The position numbers and the translations under genes are program-made. Shown here piece after piece: positions 4,111-27,805 of a stretch of DNA of 64,000 bases. A model generated the notes under the pieces. That model was given only the letters and a program-made list of their open reading frames with translations. It was not told the DNA's origin and did no database searches. This stretch comes from a virus, in UHGV virus genome UHGV-0010228; one strand, given 5' to 3'. The stretch's first letter is position 1; every line of letters begins with the position of its first letter.

Positions 4111-4120
4111 TTTAATTTAT

Positions 4121-4849: not shown

Positions 4850-4891
4850 AATAATTTATCCTCCTTATTATGTAAATTAAATGTATTTATT

Positions 4892-4908
4892 CACCATAAT
4901 AATATATT
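4892..4908 (-). promoter_or_regulatory. Conserved promoter-like motif copy
   Basis: Minus strand reads ATATATTATTATGGTGAATAAATACAT...GGAGG. Confidence 0.5.
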
Positions 4909-4920
4909 TTTATAAAAAAA

Positions 4921-4952
4921 TTTAGAATATCGCAATATTGCGATATTCTAAA
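4921..4952 (-). terminator. Terminator: perfect palindrome tttagaatatcgcaatattgcgatattctaaa
   Basis: Follows gene 4971..5357 on the minus strand and is followed by a T-run on that strand. This ends the nrdD operon. Confidence 0.6.
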
Positions 4953-4970
4953 TTTCTATAACTTGATTTT

Positions 4971-5357: not shown

Positions 5358-5372
5358 AATAATTCCTCCTCT

Positions 5373-5741
5373 TTATAACCCTTTTATTCTATTATATCTA
5401 CGCATAAGATTACTTATATCAATAATTAATTCCTCACGTATATGATATATCATATTAGTTTGAAATGAATCTAATAATTTATCATATTTTTCCATTGAAA
5501 GGCTTTTTTCATATACCTTAACTATGTATTCATGTACTGAAAAAAGTCTTTGGGTAACTTCGAGTGAATCATGACATTTTTCTCTAGGCTCATCTTCCCA
5601 ATATAATTCAAGATCAACTAAGAATTCTTCAAGATCTTTATCATATAATCTAAGGGCTTTCTTATAGATTTTATTCAATGCACTAAATACAAAATATACA
5701 TCTGATAATGATTTTATATTCTCAATTTTAAAAATGTTCAT
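5373..5741 (-). CDS. hypothetical protein (122 aa)
   Basis: ORF with GAAAAGGAAA RBS, located immediately after nrdD exon 2. Confidence 0.6.
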   Translation of the reverse strand: MNIFKIENIKSLSDVYFVFSALNKIYKKALRLYDKDLEEFLVDLELYWEDEPREKCHDSLEVTQRLFSVHEYIVKVYEKSLSMEKYDKLLDSFQTNMIYHIREELIIDISNLMRRYNRIKGL

Positions 5742-5772
5742 ATTATTTCCTTTTCTAAATAAAGTGATAAAT

Positions 5773-5840
5773 TTAAAGATGTAGAACTCGAGAATTTATT
5801 TCTTTGGTCTTACCCTCATTCCAGAAATTGCTTCCAAGAT
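5773..5840 (-). CDS. nrdD: Anaerobic ribonucleoside-triphosphate reductase NrdD, exon 2 (C-terminal 22 aa)
   Basis: Minus strand reads at|ctt gga agc aat ttc tgg aat gag ggt aag ... cat ctt taa. Joined to exon 1 it gives ...RRTCG-Y-LGSNFWNEGKTKEINSRVLHL*. A G (omega-G) precedes exon 2. Confidence 0.8.
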
Positions 5841-6156
5841 CTTTTATACCCTCGGTTTCCCGATATTTTAGTAGGGGAATAGACTATACAATACTATTTC
5901 TGATTATTTTTATGACAAAATCGACCTTTAGAATCTCGTGCCTTAAAACACAGAAATAGTTCTCTATTATAGTCGTTGAACGTCCATCCTATATTTCTAT
6001 AGATGTTTCGCTGCGTTTGATTACCCAATCCTTAATGATTTTACCATACCGATTCCGTTACTAATCGCCACTATCTATATCACTATGATAGCTTGGTTAT
6101 TAAGGCTCTAAGGGACTCCCCGCAGTTTAAGAGATTTAACGTGGACTATCTCGTTA
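5841..6156 (-). ncRNA. Group I self-splicing intron in nrdD (316 nt, no ORF)
   Basis: Internal guide GUCCAC (complement of + 6141-6146) pairs with exon end GUGGAU, with a terminal U-G. P-like element AACUGCGGGGAG, R element GUUCAACGACUA and S-like element UAUAGUCUA are present. The segment is GC-elevated and ORF-free. Confidence 0.8.
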
Positions 6157-8248: not shown

Positions 8249-8283
8249 TTTATTCTCCTTCCAAAAATGTTAAAATATCTTTA

Positions 8284-8300
8284 TCATTTTTATAATATAT
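8284..8300 (-). promoter_or_regulatory. Promoter-like motif variant upstream of nrdD (ATATATTATAAAAATGA)
   Basis: Same motif family, 35 nt upstream of the nrdD RBS. Confidence 0.4.
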
Positions 8301-8439
8301 AAGTTATAAAAAGGTTAATAATTAATACAAAAACAAGTTTTAGATACTTGTCGGTTAATAAATTTATTACAAATACTATTTATATACATATTCAACAACA
8401 CCGTAATTGCTTGATAATACTCGGAAAGGAAGTGATTTA

Positions 8440-11379: not shown

Positions 11380-11423
11380 AAACATCAACATAAGAAAATT
11401 GCAATAGAAAGGTGGCTAAAGTA

Positions 11424-13085
11424 ATGATAAATAAGAACTTACTTAGAACTGGTCTTATAAATAAATTTACTAACCAATTAATGGAATCGGTTGTAACTGA
11501 GGCTTTTGTTCGTGGTCTTCCATTCAATAAAGAAGACATGACTCATGAACTTGATTCATATAGAAATTATGTTGGATCGGTACTTGAAAGCTTAGGCGGT
11601 GGCTATATATTACTTGAAAATGCAGTTAAGAATAGCAAGCCTGGTTATATACATGATTTAGCAATCGATATAGTATCGACAGCAATTGAAGCAGCAGATA
11701 GAGTTGTAAAGGAGTCTAGTGAAGTTACAGATCCTGAAAATTCTATGTATTCAATAATTGATGAATCAGAGTTTACGGCTGAAGAACTTTCTAGATTTAA
11801 AAAGAAAGGCTCAAATATATCAATTAAAGATGTGGGTAAGGTTATCAATAAAAAGGTTATTGATACTATTAAATTAGAAAAAAATGAATATGAAGATTCA
11901 GAGGATCTTAAGGAAAAATTATCCGCAGCATTAGATGATGCTACAGATAAAGAAGATTCTGAAAAGAATGCTGGAGACGAACCATCAACTGCAGATGATT
12001 CTACTTTATCTGAGGATGATCTAAACGATCCAGATCTCGGTGATGATGATTCTAAAGATTCAGAACCTATAGAAAATGAAAAGAGTGGGTTAGAATCACT
12101 TTATCGTACTAATCTTACACCATTTGATGTTGTTAAACCTATTAGCTTATTCTCAAAGTTACAGGATCTTTGTCTCGAATCTGTATTATGTACAAATGAA
12201 GTATATAGTTCATTACCATTTGAGACTTTAACAAAGATAACTATGGAATCTACTTTAAGCGATTTTTCGCCAAAGAGTAGAACTATTGAGGAAGAATTAG
12301 AAAGTCTTAAACTTGCATCAGAATCTTATAGAGACTCTGACCTTTCTAATGATTCATTTAAATCTAAAATAGACACTGCAATGTCATGTGCTATATGTAT
12401 TGAGACTATATTAGAAACCCTTAATACCCTTAGATTATATAAGCCATCATTAGAATCGGTAAGAGATTTTGTTGATAAACATATCACATATACATCAGCA
12501 ACAGAATCAGATCTTAATGCTATAAAGAATAAGTTAACTGGAATTTCTAAGAGTATGCTTGCTGATGCTGCAGATAATGATTCTATTGAGGATTTAAGAA
12601 ATGTATATACACATATTGAATCAATAGTTGAAAGTGTAGAGGAATTACCACCAGAATACGACTCAATAAAAAATGATGTTCATGCAGCATTTGAATCAAC
12701 TGCTAAGTATATATATGATAAATGTGTTGATCTTAACAATCACTATGATGCAGTTACTGAATCTATATATGATATTAAGAATAGAGAAGCTAATATAAGT
12801 GAATTTGATAAGATCGCTAGAACTTATGGTAAGCACCCAAATGTTAGTGAAATAAGAATCGTATTTGATTCTGCAAGTGAGAATGTTGGAGCTGTATCAA
12901 TCGATGCATATGGTAGAAATGGTAATAGACTTGATAGCACAATAGCAGTTATGCATGGCCATGAGTCTTATAAAACATTCAAAGATTGTGTATTAGAAGC
13001 TGCTCAGTTATCTAAACTTCCATATACTGGAAAGAATCTTAATTACTACGATAAAACTACTTGTAAGCTTCATAATTTATACTAA
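11424..13085 (+). CDS. acidic hypothetical protein (about 554 aa, D/E/S-rich middle region)
   Basis: ATG at 11424 with AAAGGTGG RBS. The listed 11412 GTG start is less likely. Confidence 0.6.
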   Translation: MINKNLLRTGLINKFTNQLMESVVTEAFVRGLPFNKEDMTHELDSYRNYVGSVLESLGGGYILLENAVKNSKPGYIHDLAIDIVSTAIEAADRVVKESSEVTDPENSMYSIIDESEFTAEELSRFKKKGSNISIKDVGKVINKKVIDTIKLEKNEYEDSEDLKEKLSAALDDATDKEDSEKNAGDEPSTADDSTLSEDDLNDPDLGDDDSKDSEPIENEKSGLESLYRTNLTPFDVVKPISLFSKLQDLCLESVLCTNEVYSSLPFETLTKITMESTLSDFSPKSRTIEEELESLKLASESYRDSDLSNDSFKSKIDTAMSCAICIETILETLNTLRLYKPSLESVRDFVDKHITYTSATESDLNAIKNKLTGISKSMLADAADNDSIEDLRNVYTHIESIVESVEELPPEYDSIKNDVHAAFESTAKYIYDKCVDLNNHYDAVTESIYDIKNREANISEFDKIARTYGKHPNVSEIRIVFDSASENVGAVSIDAYGRNGNRLDSTIAVMHGHESYKTFKDCVLEAAQLSKLPYTGKNLNYYDKTTCKLHNLY

Positions 13086-13125
13086 AATAATAAGGATAGA
13101 TGTTTATAAACATCTATCCTTATTA

Positions 13126-13494
13126 TTATATTTTAATGACCCATCTACCCTCTATATTAAATACTACTGCACGAGAAATAAAAATTCCCCATGATGTCGA
13201 ATCTGCTGATTCATCCATACTACTCATCCAATCATTTTTTATCTGATCAAGTGCTTCAAATCTTGAGCCTGTTTCTATATTCGTATCATAGAATGATGAT
13301 TGATATAAATCAGGTTCATTTTTTAATTCATAATTAGAATTACAAAATTGATTAATTTTAGATACTACATAATCGTAATTATGATGTATTGGGTAAATCG
13401 GGGATACTTCCTTACTACAATCAATTCCATACTTAGGTTTTTCTAATAATATATCCTCAATTAACTCAGTGGGCTTAGCATTTAATTTCATCAT
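13126..13494 (-). CDS. hypothetical protein (122 aa)
   Basis: AAGGAGG RBS. The start overlaps the stop of the upstream gene (ATGA). Confidence 0.6.
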   Translation of the reverse strand: MMKLNAKPTELIEDILLEKPKYGIDCSKEVSPIYPIHHNYDYVVSKINQFCNSNYELKNEPDLYQSSFYDTNIETGSRFEALDQIKNDWMSSMDESADSTSWGIFISRAVVFNIEGRWVIKI

Positions 13495-14114
13495 TTATCC
13501 TCCTTACACATATATTTCATATATGCAACCGTTTTTTGTATACGTTTTCTATTATAATCGCAATCAAAATCTTCTTGATATCTAATTTTGATATTAATTC
13601 TAGGTTTAATAGAATAGTATAATTCTACACGTCCGGGATTGATGATATAATCATCTAATAATAATGAATCATATCCACTCATTGTATCAGGATATGTTTT
13701 AGCTAGATTATCCCAATCTGGTTTTTGTAAGGGTCTAATTTTCTTTTTTTCTGCTAAATATGTATCTACATTACTCATACTTTTAGGAGTTGGCAAATAT
13801 GCTTCAATAGTATATTCAACTCTTGTGCATATAGTATCTAATTCTTCAATAAATTTTTTCATCCGTTTTCTGTTCTTTTTAGCATCTTTAACATAAAATC
13901 CAAATTTACCCTGCCTAGGTCTTGGTGATGCTTTAGGAACCCATGGAATCGTTAAATTTATTTCTTCCCATTTAATTTTATCAATTTGCTTTTCTTTTTC
14001 TTTAACTTTATTAAAATCTATTCTTTTTGTATTTTCTAAGTATTCTAATAATTCTTCTGTTGTGTCTGGTAATTTACTATACAATTTTTCATATTCAATA
14101 TCTTCTTTATACAT
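13491..14114 (-). CDS. hypothetical protein (207 aa)
   Basis: Coupled within an operon. Confidence 0.6.
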   Translation of the reverse strand: MYKEDIEYEKLYSKLPDTTEELLEYLENTKRIDFNKVKEKEKQIDKIKWEEINLTIPWVPKASPRPRQGKFGFYVKDAKKNRKRMKKFIEELDTICTRVEYTIEAYLPTPKSMSNVDTYLAEKKKIRPLQKPDWDNLAKTYPDTMSGYDSLLLDDYIINPGRVELYYSIKPRINIKIRYQEDFDCDYNRKRIQKTVAYMKYMCKEDK

Positions 14115-14117
14115 AAT

Positions 14118-15635
14118 CTATCCTACTAACGTCGCAAATCTTCTTAATTTTGTTGCTAACGTATCACCCATTTTTCTAGCAAATGACCTAGGTACATCTC
14201 TAACTCGGTTAAGGCAAAATGCGGTAAATAAATCAACCTTTTCTCTAACATTTGATGATTTTAAATCTGCTCCACATAAATTACCGAGATATTCAATTAA
14301 ACCTTCATTTCTCATGAATAATAATGGATGATCTGAATTTGTTAACATTAATTGACTATATAAAGGAGTTATTGTAATAGTAACATTCCATGCAGTCGAT
14401 AATCCATCAATAGTCCATGCTGTCATATCATCACCACCACGGTTTAATTCTATTCCAGATATTACTGCCAATTGACTATTAAACATTCCTGGCTGATATA
14501 CACGAATAACAAATGGGAATGTATACATATTATCCGATATCTGTCTAGGTAAAGACATTGCTAATAAATGTAGTGCCGGCACCATACAATTTAAGAATAT
14601 TGATACTGGATCTCCATATGGAGAGACAAAATCCATACTACATCTAATATCTTTATTATATGTAACACCTGAGAGCATTGATGGAAAGACCATCTGTCCA
14701 CCATTTAATAATCCAGTTCCTAGCATCGAAAATATATCACCGTCACCACCAGATAATGAACTTATCATATCAGTTAAATCTTTAGTAACGTCTGAACTGA
14801 AAAATCCACCTTTATGTTCTCCTTGGAGATAATAATATAATGATGCAGATGCAGTTCCTAATTTTTGTGCAGCATCTGATAGTAAAGGAGAATCTCCTGT
14901 ATCTGTCTGTATATTTTCAGATATATTAGTTTCCTGATTATTTACAAAGAAATGAATATAGTTCTTATCACTAAAGAAATCACCTGATGTAAATAATGTT
15001 TTATAGAAATCTGTCCATATCGATCTAAGAGCAGAATCTTTAGTATTCTTATAACTCGCTCTATATCTCCAATACATATAGTCAAAGTTTTTTAATTCAA
15101 CAGATGTATTTGGCATTAAATAATCGCCAATACCCATAAGAATGGCTGATGCTCTACATAATACATTTAAATACTTTGCATATTCTTCAGTATCTTGCTT
15201 AAAATCGAAAAGTTTCATCGATTCATTACCAATCTTACGTTTACCACTTATTTCTTGCTGAACTTTATATAATATTGCACTATTACCTCTAGATGCTTCT
15301 AATATTGAATTACTAAATGAAGTTTTATCTGAATCTGTAAATTTAGGTAACATAGTTACTTTACCTGGCAATATTGATATTATTGTAGGATTTGATAATA
15401 TAGTTCTAGAATACACCCTTCCAAACCCAGAGCCCATTTCATTTGTATATTGTAAATCAATATCCATATTATATTTAGGCGGTACACCCATAGCTCTAGT
15501 TATTCTTGTTATATCAACCGAGTAATAATCTCTCTCAAGATGCCCAGCAATGGAGTTATCAGTTGGGTCATAATCCTGAGTACTAGATGCTTGATTAGTG
15601 TTTTTCTTAATTGCACCAAATGAGAAAATTCCCAT
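14118..15635 (-). CDS. hypothetical protein (505 aa), directly downstream of the giant gene (possibly virion-associated)
   Basis: GGAGGTGAAA RBS. Long ORF. Confidence 0.65.
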   Translation of the reverse strand: MGIFSFGAIKKNTNQASSTQDYDPTDNSIAGHLERDYYSVDITRITRAMGVPPKYNMDIDLQYTNEMGSGFGRVYSRTILSNPTIISILPGKVTMLPKFTDSDKTSFSNSILEASRGNSAILYKVQQEISGKRKIGNESMKLFDFKQDTEEYAKYLNVLCRASAILMGIGDYLMPNTSVELKNFDYMYWRYRASYKNTKDSALRSIWTDFYKTLFTSGDFFSDKNYIHFFVNNQETNISENIQTDTGDSPLLSDAAQKLGTASASLYYYLQGEHKGGFFSSDVTKDLTDMISSLSGGDGDIFSMLGTGLLNGGQMVFPSMLSGVTYNKDIRCSMDFVSPYGDPVSIFLNCMVPALHLLAMSLPRQISDNMYTFPFVIRVYQPGMFNSQLAVISGIELNRGGDDMTAWTIDGLSTAWNVTITITPLYSQLMLTNSDHPLLFMRNEGLIEYLGNLCGADLKSSNVREKVDLFTAFCLNRVRDVPRSFARKMGDTLATKLRRFATLVG

Positions 15636-15716: not shown

Positions 15717-18700
15717 TTATAATGTAGCTATTTTATTATACATTGAATTTAGATTAGGATTCTTTAATGATTTTGCACTTTTTGCTCTACTTCCAGTAGA
15801 AATATTATTTGTCTTATTACCACCAATAATTGTAGTGTTACCACTATTTGTAATGTTAGTTGGACTAGAATTCTTACTGTCACCATACCACTTGTCAATA
15901 GTATTAGCAATAGTATCGAGTCTAGATTCAACTCCATCATTATTAGCATTAATAAATGTATTCTTATTAATAAATCCACCATTTTCAGAATTGCCTCCGA
16001 AGTATGGAGCATCTGGGTTTATATTATATCTCTTTGCCATATTAACATTTGCTATATTTAACTTCTTATTATAATCAGGCCCTAAACCTACTAAGCTATA
16101 TGATGCAGGATTGATCCATGACCCGTTTTTCTTTACACCATAATGTAAGTGGTTACCTGTAGACTTGCCAGTAGATCCAACAAGACCAACTTTAGCACCC
16201 TTAGCAACTCTAGCGCCCTTAGACACTAAGCGCTTACTCTGATGAGCGAAGTAATGTTGAGTTCCCTTACTATCTGTTACTACAACAAGATTACCAAATC
16301 CACCAGTACTACCAGGAGATTCCGATCTAGTAACAGTACCCGATACAGGTGTATAGATTGGAGTTCCAGCTGGTGCTGCAAAATCTATACCATTATGCAT
16401 CTTACGTTTACCGCTCTGTGGATCTGATCTATATCCGAATGGACTTGAAATTCTCGTGTACTTCAATGTTTTCTGAATGGCTTCTTTAGCATTATTACCA
16501 ACTACATTAACTGATGAACCAACTGAAGAGCCAGATAAAGAAGAAGATGATGACTTAGATGTAGTATTAGTGTTTGATGATTTTCCAGATGAGTATTTAG
16601 AATTTATCCAATCCCATAAATCTCCCATCTTTGATGCTTTCATTGCATTTCCAACACCTTCTGCATATCCACTTATCATTTCACCCCACGTGGAGTTACC
16701 ATATCCAATCGGAAGATCAATATCTCCCCAGCCATAGATATTTTTTCCACCAACAGAATCGTATTGTCCTAAATTATAATTTACATATAACCGCTTTAAT
16801 TTATTTTCATAATCAATTTTTGCCATCGGGATATTATTTGGATAATCATACGTTGATGTGCAGTATCCAGCATTAGCAACTGCGTGCATTGCATCATATG
16901 CTGTAGTTGCAGTTCTAGCACCACTATATAACTTACCCGAAAGCACATCCCAATATCTAACTACACTATCACCAATGGTATTATATTTAGCCAACTTACC
17001 TTTTGGCATTACACCAAACATATTATTACTACTGAGAGCTCCACCGGCTGATCCTAAGCTTGTTTCTTGAATCGCTTGCGCCAGCGTTAATGAAGGTGGT
17101 AATGATGTTGATCTGGCGTTATCTTGAGCAAATTTTGCAAGAATATTTAATCTTTCACTTAATGATTTCTTTGCCCACTGTCTTCCACTAACATTTAATT
17201 CAGCCGGTATAGTAATTGAAGATCCGTTAAAATCTACAATTCCCGTACTACCTAAGGTTTTACCATCTTCAGCAGTTTCATAGTCTGATGATACATCACT
17301 TTCCAATTCAGAAGCAATTGCTTCCCATGGATCTGTACCATTCACATATGCTGTCATATATGAACTAATAGCACCCGCAAGTCGCTTTAATTTTGTGAAA
17401 AGATTCTCGCCTTTTAACGAACCTAAAAAGTTCATAACTCCTTCTCTAGTATGCTCTAATAAGCCGGAAGCTAAAGATTCATCAGTTGCTGCAATACTAG
17501 ACATATCAACTCCGTTTACATAGTATTCAGAATTATCAACTCTTTCTTGCATATCTTTAATTTTTGAAGATGATAATCCCCAGTTTACGTAAATATATGA
17601 CAATCTAGTTCTCTCGTGCTGTTTTATTACACTTTTAGACTTATATGTAACATTTGTACCTGTTTCAGTTTCACCATCTTTAATTACTATCGAATATTTA
17701 TTATATTTTTTATTTATTGGAATTTCGACATATCTCCAATAATCTCTTAAAGTATAATATTTATCCCTATCTGCTGATTGCATTACTGTATCTACAAGTC
17801 TTCTTAATTCAGCATCAGTAATTTTAGATACTGGAACGTTTTTCTTTCCAATAGTAGCAACATTACATACATCTGTAGATTTATTAAAATAATCAATTTT
17901 TGTTATTGTAGTATCATTCGATCCAGTCGAACTTTTCCACTTTTTATATACATATTCATAGATATATCTAGTTCTAAAAATATTATCACCATAAGTATTA
18001 ACTTTCTTTCTCCAACTTAATGCTTCATATTTTTTATATCCTTCTACAATATATTTATCATATAACTTAAAATCGGATTTTTTGTAAGATAATATTAATG
18101 AATATAGCGCAGTATTTCCAATACCTGCTAAATCTTTAGTTTGTTCAGGGACTGGTGGAATAGATTTCTTAATTGCACAGAATTTATATGGATCCGCTAA
18201 ATACTTATTTTCAATATCTCTTGAAGTCAGCTTCGTTTTATTTGCTGCATTATATAATTTTGATGGTGCCGGCGGATTATAATTTGTAGTTGTTTTAGCT
18301 TCATTTTTCTTTGCAGTTGTAATATCTTTAACCAATTTTGATTTATTGGATAGCTTATTAAGGGTTGATGATATCAGTCCATACCCAAATGGTATATCAT
18401 ATGCAGTCTTTTTTGTTTTATACATATCTGGAATATTGATATTACCATAACCATATGACCATCCACCAGTTGCATTGTTGATGACTGATGATGCTGAATA
18501 ACTCTTAGTCTTACCATCCATTGGATCTTTGATAATGATATTACCATTTGAATCCATACCTGATGCTACAACTATATGACCAGCTGATGTGAATGGATCA
18601 TTTGTATGATCTCCTCTACCGGCTACTATTGTAGGTACTCCAGATTTTATATTTGTATATAATTCGGATCCTCTAGTTACTTGATGAGGCTTTAATCCCA

Positions 18701-21700
18701 TTTCTGCAGCACCTTTGGTGAATAATGCTGCATTAGCCCCGCCCTGAGTAATATATCCATTAGCAGCTGCCATTTTACCAATGTCTCCAGGTGAAATCAT
18801 TTTACCATTAATATCATTTGCAATCATTGCTAATGATGTAGGTCCACATCCACCGTTTGCCATAGTAGATGGCTGTCCATTTGGTAATGTGCCTAATGGA
18901 ATACTTGACCACTGAGCATTTTTCTGAGATAATGCCTGACCATATCCAAAACCAACAGGTCCTCTGCCAAAACCAGCATTATTTATATTTGAAGATTTAT
19001 TTCTATTATTAGATGTATTAGTAGATGCTCCACTTCTAATAGTACCTCCACTAACATCATTCGTTATATAATCATCATTATAATCAGTCATAGTATAGCC
19101 ACTGTATGCACCAGCAGGTTTACCATAACCTAAAGCTTTATTCATAGATATGATTGGATGTCGAATCACACTCCATACACGTTTTATTACACTTCTATTT
19201 GCTATAGTGTCACTATATTCATCTAATGTTAAATCATCACCATTTTCTGCATTATATTGAGCAGCTTCTTCTTCAAATCTTTTCTGAGCTTCATCAAGAT
19301 TAAGAGCAAACTGATCATTGAATAACCCAGATAATTTATCATATAAGAACGATGCAAATTCACATTTAAGATCACATCCTTTAAATGCACCTACAACTTC
19401 TAATGTTAAGTCTATTACAATACCTACACTAATACCCATAAGGCATTTCATTACTGATGATATGAATCTCATTAATAAATCAACATCATTTGCATTTACT
19501 TTGAATAAATTAGCAGCTTCAAAGAATCCAGTTGCTAAATCGTATACACCGAATAATATTCCTATCGGAGAAGTAGTTATTCCGGCCTTAGCTATCTGAG
19601 TTCCTAATAAAGTTGCATATTTCATATATATTCTATCTTCTGATAATATAAATGTTAACTTATCTTTGAGCCATGAACTAATAGCAGATATTGTTTTAGC
19701 AATAACTGTCTTTTGTCCACTCTTATCTTTCATTATTTTACCTAATACTTTTAGTACAACCTTATTCTTTGCAATTGCACTTATTCCTTTTTCTACTAAT
19801 CCAAATGCTTTTCTAATAAGACCTTTTCTACTTTCTTTAACTGCATCACTAGCTCCTGTTTCAACAACGCTCTGTGTTGATTTCTTAAGAATATCTTTTT
19901 CAAAATCAGTTGTTGCTTCACCTGCAGCAGCCTTTGCAGTTGCTTCAGCAATAGCACCAGCTTCGGACTTTGACATAGTAAATCCAAGATCAAGGGCTGT
20001 ATCTTTAATAATGTTTCTTCTAGCAATATCCACAATTGATTTGCTTACAGATTCTGATGCATATTTTTCAAGTACTCCTAATCTTTCTTCAACTGGAAGA
20101 TACTTTAATACTTCTTCTAATAATTCTTCAGGTGCTTTATGAACACTAAGGCCTTTAGCAACCATAGCTCCAGCACCACTTTTAACATTACCAGCAGCAC
20201 TTTCAGCAGATATTCCTTTGAGAATATCATATGCTTGCTTATCATCTATATTTGAAACTAATACTTTATTGACTTCGTCTAATGTCTTATCAGATATATT
20301 ATTTAATGCGCCATTCTGTAATACCCTAGCTCCAATATCAGATGCACGTCCACTTCTAAGACCTGTAGAAGATACTATAGTATTTATACTTGATCCTGCT
20401 ACTGATCTAGCAACTGAACTCGTAGCTTTAATAGCGGCATCGCCTAATGCGGCACCTCTAGCTCCACCATATAATGCCCCTGTAACTGGCGAAATTCCTC
20501 CTGGCATTAATCCAAAAGCTCCACCAACCGTAGCACCCAGGACTGCACCGGCACCCTTATATAGCAATTTTCCAGTTCTACCACCACGAGCAGCATTAAT
20601 AGCACCTCTAACAAATCCATTTAATCCTATTCTTTGTGCATCAGTATGCTCAGCATATGTTGCATTTCCATCTTCATCAATACCTATAGCATCTTGATCT
20701 CTAGTATATGAAATAGTACCATCTTCATCAACATCAATAACATTATTACCATTAGCTTGCAAGCCTTGAATCATTGATGCTCTTTGCTCTTTGCTCATGT
20801 GAGCAGTTGATAATGTGTATACTTCAGTTGTATCAGTTTTAAACTTCCATCCTGGGACTAGTTTACCAACAGTAACATTCCATAATGCTTTAAGAACTGA
20901 TCCTGCTATAGTTGGAATTACAGAAATAAATGCATTCATCATTGGTTCTGCTAATGTATTAAACATGACCTTTATAACATCAGCAATATAATGAGCATTC
21001 TTTCCTATATTTTCAAATACTTTAGTTATTGATGGGAATATGTATTGATTCCAATACATTGGGAAGTTTTCTGAGAACTTATTAATACCATTACCAATAG
21101 ATGTTAATCCATGCTCTAATGTTGGTAATACATATTGATCCCAAATTGCTCCACGCTCAATGAAATTAGAGAATTCCTGAGTCTTAGCTTCAAGTCTAGC
21201 CTGGAAACCAGGTCTTATAATTTCAGCTATACCTATAGTTATACCTGCTACAGTGTATGCAGGAATAATTTTCTTAACACCAGCAACTACTAATTTAGCA
21301 GGAAGGGTATTGCCAACCGCACCTAATACACTTCCAGATACTCCTAAAATCTTTCCAAGAGCTTTTCTAATTATAGATGTATCATTTTCAGTTGGTTTTT
21401 CTTCTTCTTCATTAGTTTTAGCAGCAGATGTTGCACCTATAGTTGCAACTGAAGTTGCACCTTTACGAACTTCCTCAGTATCTTCATCTTTTCTATTAAG
21501 AGCAAAAAAGCTCTTAATATTATTTTTCATATTTTGAACATTCTCATTTTCTGTTATTTTATATTTATCCATTATACGTTTACCGAAACGCTTTAATGGA
21601 TTTCCTTTTGACGTACTCTTTCTCTTCTTTCTAACATCATCACCAGTAATATCACCATCTGTATTGATTTCAACATCAACTGCAGCAGCATCAGCAATAT

Positions 21701-24700
21701 CCTGATTAATTTTATTAGCTTCTTTCTGAAGATTTTCATTTTCTTTAGCAAGATTTATCTGTTCTTCCTGAAGCTTATGATTTAATCCTGCTAATTCATT
21801 TGTCTCTCTGAATAAATCAATTATCTTCTGTAAGTAAGATGACTTAGCGTCGTCATTATCTTTAATCTTAGATTCTACAAAATCTGCTAAACCATTAATA
21901 CCTTCAGGACCTAATCCCTTATCAATTTTACCAGATTTCTTAACTCTCTTAAGATTTTCAATAACGCTAGCATTAGATGCATCTTCTGATGTTCTACCAC
22001 CAAATGTGAATCCTGAAAGATCTACATCTCCTGCATACGCAGCTTTAATTAATTTATCAAGGAATATATCTTTATTAATACCTACTCTAGAATACATCGC
22101 ATCATCATTAAATCCAACATTCATTCTCGTAGCTTTTCTGCGTATATCTCCATATTTTCTAACATATTCTTCACGCATAGCTTCATATTTATTCTTGTCA
22201 GCTTCAAACTGATTCTTCTTTGAATTATATCTAAATCTCTTTTTCTCATTCTCATCTTTACGCTTTCTCTGCTTTACAAAATCTCTAAAATTACCAGTAG
22301 CAAAATATCCTGATTCTCTATATTCGTTAAATAAATCATCATCTAAGATATCTGCACTAAGATTACCAATATCTTCGATACCCATACCACTAGTATCTAT
22401 TCCATGTCTCTTTAACTTCTTTAATATTCTATCTGCATATTCAGTTCTATCAGCTTCACTAGTAAATTCATTTATTTTAAGATGGCTATTTAAAGCCTTC
22501 CCAGCAAAGAAATCTCTTATTGACTGGAGATAATCTTCTACTGCTGTCTGATAGCGCATAGTGCGTTCTCTTGCAGCTTTTTCTTCTGGGCTTTCCTGAA
22601 CTTTAACACCATCACGCATTATCTGCTCTTCAAGTGTGCCATTCTTTACAGCCTTAGACCATTCTCCACGTCTATAAAGTAAATCCATAATATCATCAGA
22701 TGTTTGTAATCTATTCAGATACTTATCATCTTTCATACCTGCTTTACGGAACATCTCACGATATCTCTTCACCTGTTCATCTGTTAAATCTACTTCTCTA
22801 CCACCAAGATCTTTAATTGTGATATTTTCTCTGATCTTATTGACCTTTTTCCACATCTTATTTTCTTTCTTGGCAGCTTTAGCTTTTGCATTTAGATCAT
22901 CTAAATCATTATCTGCTGTCATCCAATCAAATGCATTTCTACCAAGATCTGACATTTGATCAGCCCATCCTTCTTTTGCAGCTCTAGCTATATCACCTTT
23001 ACCTCTAATAGCTTGGAATATATCTACAGCTTTTCCTAATCCTGTTCTGCTATTACCAGCTTCACGTTCAGTTCTCCACTTACCCATGAGCATAGTAGCA
23101 ATATTTCTACGATATTCTTTTCTATAATCACCCATAGCATCTTTACGTTTACCACGAGTCAATAACTCTAAACCACGAAGACCTATAGAAACCGGAGCAA
23201 CTGCACCATAGATTCCTAATGACGCCGTTTTAGTTACAGCTTTAGTGATAAGCTTAGTTAATGACGCTACTGGACCAAATATTCTATGAAGGGCACCTTC
23301 AATAATAGTCTTAGCACCATCACCTATTTTTTCAATAACCGCTTTTATATTGTCTACAATATTATCTTTAACTTCTTTTATACTATCAACTATTGGACCA
23401 AATGCTTTTCTAAATGGTATTGTAATATTTTTTCTAATGGTATTTAAAGTTCCCATTACATGTTCTTTTGCAGGTCCTATGATATTATCAATTATAGTAA
23501 CCTTCATAACATTAGCCATTCGTCTTAAAAGACCATTAGTTTTTCTACCTATTACATTACCATTTTCATCAACTTGCTCTGTACCAAATAAGTATTCATT
23601 AAATTTCTTACTTGCAGAACTCATTCCGATTACCATACCAGCAATACCCATACCAATAGGTCCACCAGCAGATAATGCTGCAGGAATAAATCCCATATGA
23701 GACATCGTAGTAGCAGTTAATGCACCAATAGCAAAACCTTTTATTCCCTTACCGATCATAGGGAATAATTTGCCGAGTCTTTCTTTAGATTTATTCCAAT
23801 GATTTGATAACCAAGTTCCGCTGCGTTTTCCATCAGCACCTTTTTCACCAAATAACATTGATTGGAAAGACTCATTATTCTTTAATATACCTAATGCCGC
23901 ACCTAATAACGCACCACCAATTACACCAGAAGGTAATAATGCAGATGTTAACACTCCACCAGCACCAAACTGAGATACTGTCGAAGGCAATACTATTGAT
24001 TTTATAACACCTAATGTTGCACCACCAATTGCAAATGGTAAAGCTTTCTTAAATGATGCTTGCATCTTTTTAGTGAATATACCACCATGACGCTCACCAT
24101 TATCATCCATCTTACCAAACATTACAGACTGGAATGCTTCGGTGTGACTAAGAATTGATAGACCAGCCGCAGCGATAGCTCCACCTAATACAGTGTGAGG
24201 TAAAAATGCAAGACCGGTTAATCCTAAATTTTGTCTAGTTGCTAATAATCCGAAAATACCACCAGCTATTGCAGCTGCAGCTGCTTTAGGAGCAATCTTC
24301 TTTGCAGATTCTTTAAATTTTTCAAAGATATTCTGAGTAACTTTCTTTTTCTTAGTACTATCATTACTACCTTTTATATCTTCAGCAACATCTTCTGCTG
24401 CATCTTCAATTTTTTCTGCACCATTATATATCGTTAACGCAAATTGATCTTTTGCTGACTCGATCATATCCGCGGAATTATCAACTCCAACTGTGAATCT
24501 TTTCTTAGCACCTATAAGTTTCTTTCCAGTGAATCGTTTATAGTTACGCTTAGGGCCTTCTAATAATTTTGTCTCAGTAGCATTTATATATTTCTTATCT
24601 TCTACATCATCTGTAAGATTACTAGTAATATTTACTGTAGATTTTCTATCTCCTGGCTTTCTGAGTTTCCTCTTAAGAGATTCTTTTGTAACCCCTTCAG

Positions 24701-27680
24701 CCAATTGTACTTTACGAGGATCATTTTCCATTTGATAAACTTTATTTCGTTTATCTTTTCTATGTCTATCAGTCCATGATAAATATTTAAGATAAGTTTC
24801 ATTATTTTGCCAATCCTCACCAAATAAGTAAGTCATGGTACCACGCTGAATCTTATCGTATCCTTTTCCTAATTCTTCTTTGGTCTTTTTCCAAAAAGAC
24901 TTTTTACCATCCTTAGCTTTCTTAACCTGATCTTTAAATATACCATCTTTTTCATCAAAGAAATATTTCTTTATCTTTTCTCTAAGTTTTTTAGATGGTT
25001 CACTATCCCAGAATTTTGATAATAATCCATTTTCACCAAATAATGAAGATGTGAAATTAGTAAAGCTTGCAGATAAATTAGAAATTGCTATTGTATTAGC
25101 ATTTGCATTCTGCATTAAAGCTTCTTCTGGGGTATTTGGTGTTGGAGCATCTTGTAATCTATTAACTAAATTATTTCTAAGAGCAGTATCCTGTGCAACC
25201 TTTCTCTGGTCTCTACCAAGAATATCTTTTGGATTTCCGGTAATGTCCATCTTTTCAACTTGTGCACGAATATCATCAGTATCATTACTATGCCTAGCTC
25301 TTCGATTACGCATTCTATTGCGTAATGCTGCTTTATTACCACTAAATTTTACAGACCGTTTAGTACCAACACTATATGTGTTATAATCCAGATCATCAAA
25401 ATCAAAATCATCGGCGCTTCTAACTGGTCTGTAATGTTTATAATCGAAATCATCTTCGAGATCTTTATTTATCCCATATACAGTTCTAAAAAGTCTATCA
25501 TCTACAGGATCTACAAATTTTGATCTAGCATATTTATTCATTCTCTTCTTGCGCATTGCTTCGGCACGTTTAGGAGAGAATTTTCCAACAATTTTTTCTC
25601 CAAGATGAGTATTCTTTACTATCCATTCTTGATAATATTTCTTAATTATTTTCTTACATTCAGTCTTTTGCTCATTGATAGATGTAGCTTTATCGGCTAC
25701 CTTTTGTATTTCTTTATAAAATCCAGGTTCTGATGCGATATCTTCAATAATATCATCAGTAATTCCCATTTCTCGCATATAGTTCAATATACGTTCATCA
25801 ATCAAGCTTGAATCCATAAAGGCATATTCAAAATGGTTAATATCGAACTTTCTTCTACCACGTTCATCAGTACGTTTAAACTTTATATTATTTCTTCTAT
25901 CATTCCAAGCAGTTTTTCCGTACTGATTATTAATGTTTCTAAATATTGAAGTATCTGATGATCCAATATCAAATAACTTCTCGTTCAATCCAGCAATTGA
26001 CTCATTTATATAATTATCATAATCCATTATAGCTTGCTTATATAGATTATAATTTTCTTTCTTAAGATATGAGATTGCCTTTGCGAACTCAATACGTGCT
26101 TGTTTATCATCTATATTATCAAATATTCTATCATTAGTAATTTCACTTACTCTAGATGAAACCTTTTTTCTTTGCTTCTTATCACCAACTCCATTTATTG
26201 CATCAGTAATAGATTCGGCCATATTATTAAGAGAATATTTAAGCTCATCATTGAAATCTTTTTCAATACGATCTTTAGTCTTGAACATTCCTGTTTCATA
26301 ATCATAGTATCTCTTATTACCTTTACTATATGAAACTCGATTAAATCCATTAGGATCAACATTGAGATTTGATTTGGATAATATCTTACTGATATTAGCA
26401 ATATTATTATCCATACTACTCAAATATTCAGGAATTACTTCAACTATAGCTCTTTGAGCATATCCATTCCATGGTAAAGCATCTTTTGTATATCCACTAA
26501 GGCTTAATCCTTTTAATTTATTTCGGTCATTACCAAAAATATCACTAATTCCTAATAATGACCATATCATCTGCCCACCAAAGCCTAAACCTTTTGGTGA
26601 ATAACTCCCAATTCTTTTCAATATCTCATCGGCATATTTGCCAATCTTTTCATCAAATTTCTTTAATGATTTTGGCATTGCCATACCAATGAATTTTTCT
26701 GCAATAAATCCTACAGGATCATTCTTTATTTTCTTTATGGTATCTCCTCCGCCCATTCCTTGACCAGGAAGCATGAGCTGAGCCATTGTACCTAATAATG
26801 AATTTCCAAAATTATTTTTAACGTATCCAAGATATTCTTTTACATTAAATCCACTAGAAGTGTCAAAGTTTTTGCTTGAAGGTTTATCTTTAGAATATTT
26901 ATATTTTGTCATATTTTCAAGCATATCGCCAATTCCACTCATCATATCATTTGCAGATGAGAAGAAATCGCCCATAGTTTCATATGCTTGAACTGTATTT
27001 GAATTATGAAATTCTAACAGTTTTTCAATATTATCATTTATTCTATCAACCTTATGATTTAAGGTCATAAGTGATGAATTCAACAAATTCGTTCCATATA
27101 GAACTGAATTTATTATAGCATCAGCATTAGCACTAGAAAGTTTTGCATTTGTCCTATTTATACTATTAGCTAAATGCTCCATTCCTTTTACTTGTGCCGA
27201 ACTTGATAGCACAATTGACTTCGCAACACCAGCAGATGCATTCATATACACTTCTGCGTTTTTTGAATTATTTGTACTATCAGAAAACTCATCATCATCT
27301 AAAGCAAAATCATCATTTAAATCAAAATCTCCCATTATATCATTTTCAAATGAATCATATAATTCATCTGATACAATATTTGAGAAGACTCCCGAATTTA
27401 ATTGCTCTTTTGCTCTATTAAAAGTATCTCGAGCAGCTTTAGCGAGTTTATTTTTACCCATCTCTCTCTGCTCTTGGGTCTGCACATTCTTAAATTTTCT
27501 TGATGTATTTCTTATCTCCTTATTAATTTCTGAAATACCTTGTGCAGTATTATATGTTGATGGTAATACTTCTTTAGCAGTTATCTTAAAAGCATTACCA
27601 ACTGACGATCCAGCATTTCTTACCCAAGATTTTTTCTTAGATCTCGAACTGCTAGATCTAGATTTTATAGTTCTAGCCAA
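15717..27680 (-). CDS. Giant 3987-aa virion/tail protein: tape-measure-like glycine-rich TM region plus C39-like peptidase, lytic transglycosylase and M23 peptidase domains
   Basis: Uninterrupted ORF with TTG start and AAAGGTGG RBS. The middle has Gly/Ala-rich membrane-spanning segments (AAAAIAGGIFGLLA..., GGPIGMGIAGMVIGM). Domain motifs: GGCGPTSLAM...GHIVVASGMD (C39-like); LTLAQAIQETSLGSAGG...NNMFGVM (SLT/lysozyme-like); HNGIDFAAPAGTPIY...GNHLHYGVKKNG (M23). Confidence 0.85.
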   Translation of the reverse strand: MARTIKSRSSSSRSKKKSWVRNAGSSVGNAFKITAKEVLPSTYNTAQGISEINKEIRNTSRKFKNVQTQEQREMGKNKLAKAARDTFNRAKEQLNSGVFSNIVSDELYDSFENDIMGDFDLNDDFALDDDEFSDSTNNSKNAEVYMNASAGVAKSIVLSSSAQVKGMEHLANSINRTNAKLSSANADAIINSVLYGTNLLNSSLMTLNHKVDRINDNIEKLLEFHNSNTVQAYETMGDFFSSANDMMSGIGDMLENMTKYKYSKDKPSSKNFDTSSGFNVKEYLGYVKNNFGNSLLGTMAQLMLPGQGMGGGDTIKKIKNDPVGFIAEKFIGMAMPKSLKKFDEKIGKYADEILKRIGSYSPKGLGFGGQMIWSLLGISDIFGNDRNKLKGLSLSGYTKDALPWNGYAQRAIVEVIPEYLSSMDNNIANISKILSKSNLNVDPNGFNRVSYSKGNKRYYDYETGMFKTKDRIEKDFNDELKYSLNNMAESITDAINGVGDKKQRKKVSSRVSEITNDRIFDNIDDKQARIEFAKAISYLKKENYNLYKQAIMDYDNYINESIAGLNEKLFDIGSSDTSIFRNINNQYGKTAWNDRRNNIKFKRTDERGRRKFDINHFEYAFMDSSLIDERILNYMREMGITDDIIEDIASEPGFYKEIQKVADKATSINEQKTECKKIIKKYYQEWIVKNTHLGEKIVGKFSPKRAEAMRKKRMNKYARSKFVDPVDDRLFRTVYGINKDLEDDFDYKHYRPVRSADDFDFDDLDYNTYSVGTKRSVKFSGNKAALRNRMRNRRARHSNDTDDIRAQVEKMDITGNPKDILGRDQRKVAQDTALRNNLVNRLQDAPTPNTPEEALMQNANANTIAISNLSASFTNFTSSLFGENGLLSKFWDSEPSKKLREKIKKYFFDEKDGIFKDQVKKAKDGKKSFWKKTKEELGKGYDKIQRGTMTYLFGEDWQNNETYLKYLSWTDRHRKDKRNKVYQMENDPRKVQLAEGVTKESLKRKLRKPGDRKSTVNITSNLTDDVEDKKYINATETKLLEGPKRNYKRFTGKKLIGAKKRFTVGVDNSADMIESAKDQFALTIYNGAEKIEDAAEDVAEDIKGSNDSTKKKKVTQNIFEKFKESAKKIAPKAAAAAIAGGIFGLLATRQNLGLTGLAFLPHTVLGGAIAAAGLSILSHTEAFQSVMFGKMDDNGERHGGIFTKKMQASFKKALPFAIGGATLGVIKSIVLPSTVSQFGAGGVLTSALLPSGVIGGALLGAALGILKNNESFQSMLFGEKGADGKRSGTWLSNHWNKSKERLGKLFPMIGKGIKGFAIGALTATTMSHMGFIPAALSAGGPIGMGIAGMVIGMSSASKKFNEYLFGTEQVDENGNVIGRKTNGLLRRMANVMKVTIIDNIIGPAKEHVMGTLNTIRKNITIPFRKAFGPIVDSIKEVKDNIVDNIKAVIEKIGDGAKTIIEGALHRIFGPVASLTKLITKAVTKTASLGIYGAVAPVSIGLRGLELLTRGKRKDAMGDYRKEYRRNIATMLMGKWRTEREAGNSRTGLGKAVDIFQAIRGKGDIARAAKEGWADQMSDLGRNAFDWMTADNDLDDLNAKAKAAKKENKMWKKVNKIRENITIKDLGGREVDLTDEQVKRYREMFRKAGMKDDKYLNRLQTSDDIMDLLYRRGEWSKAVKNGTLEEQIMRDGVKVQESPEEKAARERTMRYQTAVEDYLQSIRDFFAGKALNSHLKINEFTSEADRTEYADRILKKLKRHGIDTSGMGIEDIGNLSADILDDDLFNEYRESGYFATGNFRDFVKQRKRKDENEKKRFRYNSKKNQFEADKNKYEAMREEYVRKYGDIRRKATRMNVGFNDDAMYSRVGINKDIFLDKLIKAAYAGDVDLSGFTFGGRTSEDASNASVIENLKRVKKSGKIDKGLGPEGINGLADFVESKIKDNDDAKSSYLQKIIDLFRETNELAGLNHKLQEEQINLAKENENLQKEANKINQDIADAAAVDVEINTDGDITGDDVRKKRKSTSKGNPLKRFGKRIMDKYKITENENVQNMKNNIKSFFALNRKDEDTEEVRKGATSVATIGATSAAKTNEEEEKPTENDTSIIRKALGKILGVSGSVLGAVGNTLPAKLVVAGVKKIIPAYTVAGITIGIAEIIRPGFQARLEAKTQEFSNFIERGAIWDQYVLPTLEHGLTSIGNGINKFSENFPMYWNQYIFPSITKVFENIGKNAHYIADVIKVMFNTLAEPMMNAFISVIPTIAGSVLKALWNVTVGKLVPGWKFKTDTTEVYTLSTAHMSKEQRASMIQGLQANGNNVIDVDEDGTISYTRDQDAIGIDEDGNATYAEHTDAQRIGLNGFVRGAINAARGGRTGKLLYKGAGAVLGATVGGAFGLMPGGISPVTGALYGGARGAALGDAAIKATSSVARSVAGSSINTIVSSTGLRSGRASDIGARVLQNGALNNISDKTLDEVNKVLVSNIDDKQAYDILKGISAESAAGNVKSGAGAMVAKGLSVHKAPEELLEEVLKYLPVEERLGVLEKYASESVSKSIVDIARRNIIKDTALDLGFTMSKSEAGAIAEATAKAAAGEATTDFEKDILKKSTQSVVETGASDAVKESRKGLIRKAFGLVEKGISAIAKNKVVLKVLGKIMKDKSGQKTVIAKTISAISSWLKDKLTFILSEDRIYMKYATLLGTQIAKAGITTSPIGILFGVYDLATGFFEAANLFKVNANDVDLLMRFISSVMKCLMGISVGIVIDLTLEVVGAFKGCDLKCEFASFLYDKLSGLFNDQFALNLDEAQKRFEEEAAQYNAENGDDLTLDEYSDTIANRSVIKRVWSVIRHPIISMNKALGYGKPAGAYSGYTMTDYNDDYITNDVSGGTIRSGASTNTSNNRNKSSNINNAGFGRGPVGFGYGQALSQKNAQWSSIPLGTLPNGQPSTMANGGCGPTSLAMIANDINGKMISPGDIGKMAAANGYITQGGANAALFTKGAAEMGLKPHQVTRGSELYTNIKSGVPTIVAGRGDHTNDPFTSAGHIVVASGMDSNGNIIIKDPMDGKTKSYSASSVINNATGGWSYGYGNINIPDMYKTKKTAYDIPFGYGLISSTLNKLSNKSKLVKDITTAKKNEAKTTTNYNPPAPSKLYNAANKTKLTSRDIENKYLADPYKFCAIKKSIPPVPEQTKDLAGIGNTALYSLILSYKKSDFKLYDKYIVEGYKKYEALSWRKKVNTYGDNIFRTRYIYEYVYKKWKSSTGSNDTTITKIDYFNKSTDVCNVATIGKKNVPVSKITDAELRRLVDTVMQSADRDKYYTLRDYWRYVEIPINKKYNKYSIVIKDGETETGTNVTYKSKSVIKQHERTRLSYIYVNWGLSSSKIKDMQERVDNSEYYVNGVDMSSIAATDESLASGLLEHTREGVMNFLGSLKGENLFTKLKRLAGAISSYMTAYVNGTDPWEAIASELESDVSSDYETAEDGKTLGSTGIVDFNGSSITIPAELNVSGRQWAKKSLSERLNILAKFAQDNARSTSLPPSLTLAQAIQETSLGSAGGALSSNNMFGVMPKGKLAKYNTIGDSVVRYWDVLSGKLYSGARTATTAYDAMHAVANAGYCTSTYDYPNNIPMAKIDYENKLKRLYVNYNLGQYDSVGGKNIYGWGDIDLPIGYGNSTWGEMISGYAEGVGNAMKASKMGDLWDWINSKYSSGKSSNTNTTSKSSSSSLSGSSVGSSVNVVGNNAKEAIQKTLKYTRISSPFGYRSDPQSGKRKMHNGIDFAAPAGTPIYTPVSGTVTRSESPGSTGGFGNLVVVTDSKGTQHYFAHQSKRLVSKGARVAKGAKVGLVGSTGKSTGNHLHYGVKKNGSWINPASYSLVGLGPDYNKKLNIANVNMAKRYNINPDAPYFGGNSENGGFINKNTFINANNDGVESRLDTIANTIDKWYGDSKNSSPTNITNSGNTTIIGGNKTNNISTGSRAKSAKSLKNPNLNSMYNKIATL
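16100..16465 (-). other. M23 (LytM-type) metallopeptidase domain of the giant protein
   Basis: HxxxD...HxH motif set: HNGIDFAAP, then NHLHYG near 16154. Confidence 0.7.
16760..17180 (-). other. Lytic transglycosylase (SLT-like) domain of the giant protein
   Basis: AQAIQETSLGS... catalytic-Glu motif encoded near 17040-17110. Confidence 0.6.
18455..18900 (-). other. C39-like (papain-fold) peptidase domain of the giant protein
   Basis: GGCGPTSLAMIAN...GHIVV. The cysteine is encoded near 18840-18850. Confidence 0.55.
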
Positions 27681-27764
27681 ATTAAATTCACCACCTTTCA
27701 GCTATAGATTAAATTTAGCCTAAACTTTTATCGGTCTGTTTTTATAGGTTAATTTAGGGAATTA

Positions 27765-27805
27765 AATAAAATAGATAGTTTATATAAACTATCTATTTTA
27801 TTTAG
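27765..27805 (-). terminator. Terminator hairpin for gene 27809..28216
   Basis: aaataaaatagatagtttata / tataaactatctattttattt inverted repeat. Confidence 0.5.

Follow-up and report, generated by a model that had tools for sequence, protein, structure and literature searches.

A giant, probably gp181-type tail protein with exchangeable wall-degrading modules in an uncultured jumbo phage

Known gp181-type proteins and the locus under study

The gp181 protein of phage phiKZ (2237 amino acids, aa) has been assigned to the tail as a structural lysin (PMC5380687). Its gene, orf181, is essential and was described as 'likely the tape measure', and orf182 codes for a baseplate protein (PMC12676376). 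In the structural atlas of phiKZ, gp182 is a hexamer and makes up the 'spacer' ring that separates the tube initiator from the hub (PMC13250141). Goslar gp203 belongs to the tube-initiator complex. In SPN3US, gp239 is absent or more than 10-fold depleted in tailless particles (PMC5105663, PMC10052503). Here, 64 kb of the phage genome UHGV-0010228, referred to below as the window, were analysed. They carry an open reading frame (ORF) for a protein of 3987 aa, the giant, which is probably a gp181-type tail protein of an uncultured jumbo myophage of low guanine-cytosine (GC) content, distantly related to phiKZ, phiR1-37, AR9 and the Staphylococcus jumbo phages. The window, whose GC content is 27-35%, is part of a distant jumbo phage genome that encodes a multisubunit RNA polymerase (RNAP).

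The giant is encoded by a single ORF of 11.96 kb, exactly as stated in an earlier note made from the letters of this DNA alone. Because a frame of 12 kb stays open in DNA of 30-35% GC, it is not a chance product. Proteins 92-99.6% identical to the giant and 3987-4011 aa long (P0001-P0003) are present in other metagenome assemblies and the frame is therefore a conserved gene.

Gene order and profile homology

The assignment to the gp181 type follows from conserved gene order together with N-terminal profile homology. The window and two related contigs, ERZ27270443:k99_271523 of 231 kb and another of 262 kb, share the RNAP beta genes, the divergently oriented giant, a gp182-like gene and a resolvase gene. 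The core of this arrangement, a giant followed by a gp182-like gene with RNAP beta genes in the vicinity, is found again in phiKZ (gp178/gp180, divergent gp181, gp182), SPN3US (gp240/241, gp239, gp238) and phiR1-37 (g083, g085, then the resolvase g086), although in phiR1-37 the RNAP beta gene g099 lies ~12 kb downstream and is not divergent. Only the adjacency of giant and gp182-like gene is kept in Staphylococcus phage Madawaska, where a tape-measure protein (TMP) gene, a tail lysin gene and a gp182-like gene follow one another. For the 505-aa protein encoded next to the giant on its downstream side, Pfam gave no match; it is homologous to phiKZ gp182 (E 1e-14; PDB 9xqs_K), to Goslar gp203 (PDB 11lx_H) and to SPN3US gp238 (E 8e-10).

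A family profile of the N-terminal 520 aa, with E values calculated at a deliberately large Z of 1e5, matched phiR1-37 g083 (aa 9-422, E 8e-37), the tail lysin and TMP of Madawaska (E 4e-13 and 3e-6, respectively) and phiKZ gp181 (aa 468-576, E 1.4e-4). SPN3US gp239, which is colinear with gp181 (E 1e-29), was matched with an E value of 0.03 at the same profile positions as gp181. A second profile, built on the hydrophobic block further downstream, matched g083 as well (aa 895-1063, E 9e-10). Pairwise BLAST is nearly blind to the relationship that the profile detects. Neither megablast with the giant gene nor tblastn with aa 1-3000 gave a match among 50,697 phage records; homology to known phages is visible with profiles only. 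Two homologue searches with internal segments of the giant returned no or almost no match although full-length P0001 was in the database; we attribute this to the word index and not to biology, and such negatives are untrustworthy for internal fragments of very long proteins.

The giant thus shares with gp181 and gp239 the locus, the N-terminal profile similarity and a peptidoglycan hydrolase domain near the C-terminus, and it is predicted to be a tail component like these two homologues. It differs from gp181 in being 1.8 times longer and in a pairwise similarity that is barely detectable. A single enzyme domain is present in gp181, a homologue of gp144 of the lysozyme-like or transglycosylase kind, whereas the giant combines a GH73, an M23 and a C39-like domain; the last of these is absent from gp181, which, unlike the giant, also shows no enrichment in the G-x-G motifs described below. 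Apart from the gp144-like lysozyme domain, no gp181 chain was found in the PDB. The best cultured relative by sequence is g083 of phiR1-37 (2553 aa, 'putative tape measure tail fibre protein'), in a phage where giant, gp182-like structural protein and Holliday-junction resolvase stand in the same order as in the window. By eye only, the end of g083 ('...AKRIAQGG') resembles the C-terminus of the giant. In contrast, phiR1-37 infects a Gram-negative bacterium, g083 is followed by a distinct gene for a small peptidase (g084) in place of fused cassettes, and g083 contains no C39-like domain.

The Staphylococcus jumbo phages MarsHill, Madawaska and DC4 encode a TMP with an M23 domain (~1990 aa) and a 'tail lysin' with PF18013 and NlpC/P60 domains (~1960 aa). 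Both have N-terminal homology to the giant and the same locus upstream of a gp182-like gene, and both are helical, contain transmembrane (TM) segments and carry wall hydrolases; together they amount to 3955 aa, against 3987 aa for the giant. They are nevertheless two tandem paralogues, while the giant has a single N-terminal domain, and the TMP carries its M23 domain mid-protein, unlike the giant. An origin of the giant by fusion of two such paralogues was considered and rejected, as neither a second N-terminal domain nor an internal repeat was found. In Madawaska (L002), the TMP (2871-8849) and the tail lysin (8873-14764) share a stretch of 55 aa that is 96% identical (aa 1756-1810 and 1582-1636, respectively), which suggests recent gene conversion.

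A family of giants with exchangeable modules

With aa 1-2900 of the giant as query, 57 proteins were retrieved; they measure 2744-4877 aa, and their contigs reach 265 kb, all long contigs being 200-265 kb. The gp181-type tail protein is thereby extended to an uncultured clade of phages of 200-265 kb, in which it has expanded to 2700-4900 residues and turned into a carrier of interchangeable wall-degrading enzymes. Nearly all members have aa 50-500 and aa 1150-1500 in common; aa 2650-2800 and aa 2900-3060, the latter corresponding to the C39-like domain, are found in most of them, and aa 3100-3987 only in the closest relatives. The last ~110 residues are alignable family-wide whatever enzymes precede them, and this C-terminal module is a candidate anchor to the baseplate hub; a hidden Markov model of it did not match the cultured relatives. 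Between the conserved ends, the enzymes vary (M23, GH73, CHAP, PF18013, NlpC/P60, SLT, VanY). What is new is a family of 57 giants with conserved ends, a C39-like core and swappable enzyme modules bounded by G-x-G motifs. The giant itself contains no internal duplication.

The exchange of modules is seen most directly by comparison with P0002. Outside one cassette, which consists of an orphan module and the GH73 domain, the two proteins are 91-100% identical in each 100-aa bin (98% over the N-terminal 1500 aa), and within it identity falls to 28-55%. Both breakpoints of the swapped cassette coincide with a GYG junction (Table 1). This tripeptide occurs five times in the giant for 1.2 expected, always in the last quarter and always at a module border: the first closes a conserved block (aa 2851), the next two stand just before the C39-like domain and at its end (aa 2912 and 3077), the fourth opens the following module (aa 3099) and the last comes behind GH73 (aa 3659). 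Behind M23 there is a GLG variant. Gly3077 is conserved in at least 90% of the 28 diverse relatives, as is Gly2910 in the junction just upstream of the C39-like domain. Family-wide, 192 GYG are found for 62 expected, with the consensus [LVI]-G-Y-G-[PNK]-G, and other clades have GGRG (3-5 per protein for ~0.15 expected), YGRG or GFGP at the same junctions. In close family pairs, 20 of the 26 C-terminal identity breakpoints lie at most 10 residues from a junction motif, as opposed to 3.1 expected (binomial p ~4e-14, for breakpoints that are not fully independent). The enzyme modules at the C-terminus are cassettes that can be exchanged, with G-x-G motifs as their borders. These junctions mark natural cut-and-paste sites of lysin domains and would be useful for engineering chimeric lysins.

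The orphan module is only ~30-50% identical between phages in which its flanks are more than 95% identical. Nothing related to it was found among 1.84 billion representative proteins besides its own cluster, and aa 3100-3510 match no Pfam family. It may be a fast-evolving or swapped module of host interaction.

The C-terminal enzymes

According to the earlier note, three distinct peptidoglycan hydrolases, namely a C39-like peptidase, a lytic transglycosylase and an M23 peptidase, stand at the C-terminus of the giant. A domain search with Pfam confirmed the first and the last of these families; for the second it returned GH73 instead. The M23 match (Peptidase_M23, aa 3760-3858) has an E value of 1.4e-27 and 96.1 bits for a cut-off of 28.7, the metal motifs HNGID (H3762/D3766) and HLH (H3844/H3846) are present, and matches in the PDB include 3slu, 6muk, LytM and lysostaphin. 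The supposed transglycosylase region (AQAIQETSLGS) belongs to Pfam Glucosaminidase (E 3e-12, 47.7 bits for a cut-off of 30.2), and neither SLT nor any other transglycosylase model of Pfam matched the giant at E <= 0.01. The conserved Glu of the A-x-x-E-S/T motif is Glu3539, which, from what is known of the GH73 family, we take to be catalytic; it is followed by NNMFGV and GYCTSTYDY. The catalytic motifs of all three domains are intact, and the corresponding activities are predicted from sequence.

For the C39-like domain, Pfam Peptidase_C39_2 (PF13529) matches aa 2941-3054 above its gathering score (E 3.9e-10, 40.9 bits for a cut-off of 24), and in 44 relatives Cys2945 and His3035 of the triad are invariant while Asp3052 is present in 43. 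The AlphaFold2 (AF2) model, calculated from 28 sequences, shows a papain-like fold with a core predicted local distance difference test (pLDDT) score above 90. Foldseek against the PDB ranked papain-like CdiA-CT toxins first and also returned the double-glycine leader peptidases PCAT1 and ComA, at root-mean-square deviations of 2.5-3.2 Å and 19-26% identity, as well as the pseudomurein endoisopeptidase PeiR, staphopain and the C39-like protein 3erv of B. anthracis. A C39-like domain is present in 51 of the 57 family members, sometimes twice. Two copies are carried by P0016, P0024, P0025, P0041 and P0049, and in the first three of these the extra copy lies at aa ~750-1130, in the N-terminal third and far from the lysin cassettes.

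The fold suits a wall peptidase and a glycine-specific protease alike. The claim of three peptidoglycan hydrolases is insecure with regard to the C39-like domain, which is a conserved core unlike the shuffled lysins and whose closest folds of low deviation include double-glycine peptidases. This domain may be a processing protease, and the G-x-G motifs may then be its cleavage sites. The giant would in that case be a self-processing polyprotein with two wall hydrolases and one maturation protease, in which the C39-like domain cuts the junctions (GYG, GGRG, YGRG, GFGP) and unlatches the lysin cassettes. This alternative is tentative and, on balance, unlikely. It is favored by the near-universal presence and invariant triad of the domain in a family whose bona fide lysin modules vary, by the low deviations from PCAT1 and ComA, and by the conserved and enriched glycine motifs on both sides of the domain and around other modules. 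Enrichment is significant in 32 of the 51 members with a C39-like domain, but in none of the six members and four cultured relatives that lack the domain. A precedent exists in the Tal protein of the lactococcal phages TP901-1 and Tuc2009, where the tail lysin domain is also preceded by a glycine-rich motif, a functional analogy for the G-x-G junctions; in TP901-1 this motif is a proteolytic processing site (PMC11409707). Tal is, however, a gp27-like baseplate hub/fibre protein with a longer glycine run (NGGGNSGGGD) and no C39-like domain.

Against self-processing, the association of motif and domain is confounded by phylogeny, with a small negative set, and 19 of the 51 members bearing the domain lack significant enrichment. 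The motifs could also be no more than linkers that recombination sites tolerate. In the fold comparison PeiR does as well as the leader peptidases, and the 3erv-type domain corresponds to the N5 domain of the LysA endolysins of mycobacteriophages, a presumed wall peptidase (PMC3314691). The more specific proposal, that cleavage at clade-specific junctions releases or activates the variable wall-degrading enzymes during tail maturation or infection, is rather doubtful. If true, it would describe a modular, recombination-friendly 'plug-and-cut' system of a kind not described for tape-measure-type proteins, and if the C39-like domain proved to be a maturation protease, the tail of the phage would be armed in a novel manner.

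The N-terminal body, probable tape-measure function and tail length

The Gly/Ala-rich hydrophobic region, which the earlier note placed around residues 1090-1360 and described as multi-TM, is real. Gly and Ala make up 25-28% of aa 1101-1400, four Kyte-Doolittle peaks above 1.5 fall within aa 1129-1266, and the block is among the best conserved of the family. The N-terminal domain contains the motif AIVEVIPEYLS (aa 411-421), and its profile found in the PDB only insignificant matches of coiled-coil type to influenza HA2.

The giant is probably a tape measure. Genes for tape measures are adjacent to genes of the tube initiator or hub, as in the 29-48-54 order of T4, and the next gene after the giant encodes the gp182/gp203 homologue. 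The notion of a tape-measure-like virion protein stands insofar as the giant is, by position and sequence, the counterpart of phiKZ gp181, SPN3US gp239 and phiR1-37 g083, and falls short in that canonical tape-measure models do not recognize it. Several points weigh against this reading. Beyond the M23 domain, the giant matches no such model in Pfam, PHROGs or NCBIfam. For aa 1-2900 there is no curated tape-measure match, and the only match of this kind, phrog_167, is due to its M23 part; NCBIfam gave M23-type matches and one weak match at the start of GH73 and nothing else. Outside the three enzyme domains, no family of the three databases matches anywhere in the giant. The AF2 model of aa 1-520, which predicts a non-globular region, nearly all alpha-helix with one helix of ~120 residues, is of low confidence (pLDDT 58). 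Two paralogous copies, as in the Staphylococcus jumbo phages, fit a simple ruler poorly. Even for the reference protein, lumen position and ruler function are inferences, and gp181 is neither named nor modelled in the phiKZ structural atlas (PMC13250141). Finally, with 64 kb of the genome visible, a further tape-measure gene may lie elsewhere.

A mechanism can be proposed by analogy with T5 Pb2 and T4 gp29, both of which are tape measures. The tail tube would contain a few copies of the giant, the C-terminus being placed at the baseplate hub beside the gp182-like spacer ring and the N-terminal ~2850 residues acting as scaffold or ruler. On contraction the C-terminal enzymes would exit first and open the peptidoglycan locally for the passage of tube and DNA, GH73 attacking the glycan strand and M23, perhaps with the C39-like domain, the peptide cross-links; after sheath contraction the hydrophobic blocks would insert into the membrane. 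The tape measures of siphophages (T5 Pb2, vB_SauS-phiIPLA35 TMP, mycobacteriophage TMPs) similarly combine a helical ruler, hydrophobic segments and one or more C-terminal wall hydrolases; Pb2 is listed as a virion-associated lysin (PMC5380687), and the TMP of phiIPLA35 has a muramidase (PMC8570332). They have no detectable sequence relation to the giant, are 1000-2000 aa long with one or two enzyme motifs, and belong to non-contractile tails.

At 1.5 Å per residue, 3987 aa would correspond to ~600 nm, and the earlier note expected an unusually long tail if the giant is a true tape measure, unless much of it is non-ruler cargo. Such a tail does not follow. The tail of phiKZ measures 200 nm for the 2237-aa gp181 (tube lumen ~68 Å), and that of MarsHill-type phages 233 nm for homologues of 1992 and 1963 aa. 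As these relatives already exceed the 1.5 Å rule, the length of the giant implies no extreme tail, and in the gp181-type lineage protein length is not convertible to tail length by this rule. Scaling from phiKZ and MarsHill-type phages gives roughly 250-470 nm. Assuming 1.21 Å^3/Da and a tube similar to that of phiKZ with its 68-Å lumen, 3-6 copies of the 439-kDa protein (1600-3200 nm^3) would fit into a tube of 200 nm (~7300 nm^3). The giant, about twice as long as gp181, would differ from it mainly by additional helical or hydrophobic spacer and enzyme cassettes, and no proportionally longer tail would be needed. Nor is its length a record: Thermus phage P23-45 has a tape measure of 5002 aa and a tail of 800 nm, and this protein carries an RNA polymerase at its N-terminus (10.1101/2022.12.01.518664), from which it also follows that tape measures can deliver enzymes. 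P23-45 resembles the present case in having a giant tape measure with enzymatic cargo, and differs in the N-terminal position and nature of that cargo, in being a siphovirus and in a tail length that matches protein length.

The same figures bear on a second alternative, a protein packed into and ejected from the tail lumen that does not set tail length, most of its sequence being spacer, membrane-active or enzymatic cargo. In phiKZ and MarsHill-type phages the number of residues per nm of tail greatly exceeds the canonical one, the tube of phiKZ has a wide lumen, the Staphylococcus phages have duplicated paralogues, and length within the family varies largely through cassettes. Nevertheless, phiKZ-like phages have no other known ruler candidate, orf181 is essential and called the likely tape measure (PMC12676376), and the conserved N- and C-terminal ends suit a ruler anchored on both sides. 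Cargo without ruler function is judged rather unlikely.

It is very unlikely that the giant is an internal head or ejection protein comparable to T7 gp16 or the inner-body proteins of phiKZ. Podophage ejection proteins do share large size, hydrophobic segments and a wall hydrolase with it, and the neighboring virion RNAP genes encode head proteins. On the other hand, the tailless particles in which SPN3US gp239 is missing or depleted are DNA-filled heads, gp181 is assigned to the tail, and the adjacent gene encodes a baseplate ring. A non-phage gene, whether for a wall hydrolase or secretion protein of a conjugative element, given that VirB1-like proteins of Gram-positive conjugative elements also join multiple TM segments to a C-terminal hydrolase, or for a polymorphic toxin, as the CdiA-CT matches might suggest, is effectively refuted by the jumbo-phage surroundings (RNAP beta subunits, gp182-like baseplate protein, RusA, NrdD) and by the 200-265 kb size of all long contigs with relatives of the giant.

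Features and neighboring genes

Table 1. Coordinates of the giant ORF, its parts and neighboring features in the window
Feature	Residues (aa)	Position	Strand	Remarks
Giant ORF, probable gp181-type tail protein	1-3987	15717..27680	minus	438.6 kDa, isoelectric point 9.4, TTG start
N-terminal conserved domain	1-520	26121..27680	minus	homologous to g083, Madawaska tail lysin and TMP, and gp181 N-termini
Gly/Ala-rich hydrophobic block, putative membrane-inserting segments	1100-1500	23181..24383	minus	in 53 of 54 non-redundant relatives
Second Gly/Ala-rich hydrophobic region	2090-2420	20421..21413	minus	hydropathy
Conserved hydrophobic block	2600-2850	19131..19883	minus	hydropathy and family conservation; followed by first GYG (aa 2851-2853)
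Junction GFGYG	2910-2914	18939..18953	minus	just upstream of C39-like; Gly2910 in >=90% of 28 diverse relatives
C39-like papain-fold cysteine peptidase	2919-3079	18444..18926	minus	Pfam, AF2, Foldseek; ends in GYG (aa 3077-3079)
GYG junction IPFGYG	3099-3101	18378..18386	minus	left breakpoint of swapped cassette
Exchangeable cassette (orphan module and GH73)	3102-3658	16707..18377	minus	28-55% identical to P0002
Orphan module	3102-3500	17181-18377	minus	~30-50% identical between phages with flanks >95% identical
GH73 (Pfam Glucosaminidase, PF01832)	3516-3637	16770..17135	minus	putative catalytic Glu3539 in AQAIQETSLGS
GYG junction LPIGYG	3659-3661	16698..16706	minus	right breakpoint of swapped cassette
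M23 metallopeptidase	3743-3865	16086..16454	minus	H3762, D3766, H3813, H3844, H3846; then variant junction VGLG (aa 3864-3867)
C-terminal module	3878-3987	15720..16049	minus	helix, Asn/Thr-rich stretch, terminal amphipathic helix
Shine-Dalgarno-like AAAGGTGGTGA		27688..27698	minus	strong ribosome-binding site, 7 nucleotides (nt) 5' of TTG; read from sequence
AT-rich perfect inverted repeat, 15-bp arms, then T-rich run		27768..27799	minus	by eye
Perfect 16-bp palindromic hairpin, 4-nt loop		15672..15707		in the 81-nt gap 3' of the giant stop, before the gp182-like gene
gp182-like neighbor, 505 aa		14118..15635	minus	directly downstream of giant; phrog_20401 'virion structural protein'
RusA-like Holliday-junction resolvase		13491..14114	minus	same position as phiR1-37 g086
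NrdD anaerobic ribonucleotide reductase		6146-8248	minus	E 1.5e-219 to phrog_487
Phage multisubunit RNAP beta-like subunit, two ORFs		36004-39159 + 39537-40724	plus	divergent from giant

The inverted repeat between the upstream ORF and the giant was missed by a GC-dependent scan and is a possible terminator of the upstream unit. The hairpin behind the giant could act as terminator or attenuator on either strand. None of the nine neighbors upstream of the giant has a Pfam or PHROG match.

The RNAP beta-like subunit is split at profile position ~1055/1060, a gap of 377 nt separating its two ORFs. In the related contig L004 (1-5033), a gene for an HNH_3 endonuclease stands between two RNAP beta-like pieces, and the split suggests an insertion site of homing-endonuclease or intron type. 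An Rfam scan of the window found no family and no intron, and the scan for tRNAs was also empty. A further HNH_3 gene adjoins NrdD in L003 (31861-32033).

Among cultured phages, the RNAP subunit comes closest to those of jumbo phages infecting Listeria, Staphylococcus and Bacillus (28-32% identity), and next to those of phiR1-37, Fusobacterium phages and phiKZ-like phages. From these relatives and the lysin repertoire of the family, a Gram-positive (Bacillota) host is plausible, and NrdD points to an anaerobic one. The closest bacterial homologues of aa 3501-3870 match the M23 part only and are scattered over Bacteroidota, Proteobacteria and Bacillota, so that the enzyme region is uninformative about the host.

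A RusA-like gene directly after the baseplate spacer gene is also found in phiR1-37 (g086) and in both related contigs, and this linkage of a DNA-metabolism gene to tail genes is unexpectedly stable. The related phage L004 encodes a longer gp182-like baseplate protein of 648 aa with an SH3_3 wall-binding domain (20854-22800). Two large ORFs on the plus strand, 8407-11379 (990 aa) and 11412-13085 (557 aa), converge on the tail genes of the window. The sole match of the former is phrog_18960, a phage family of unknown function, and both are conserved in the related contigs.

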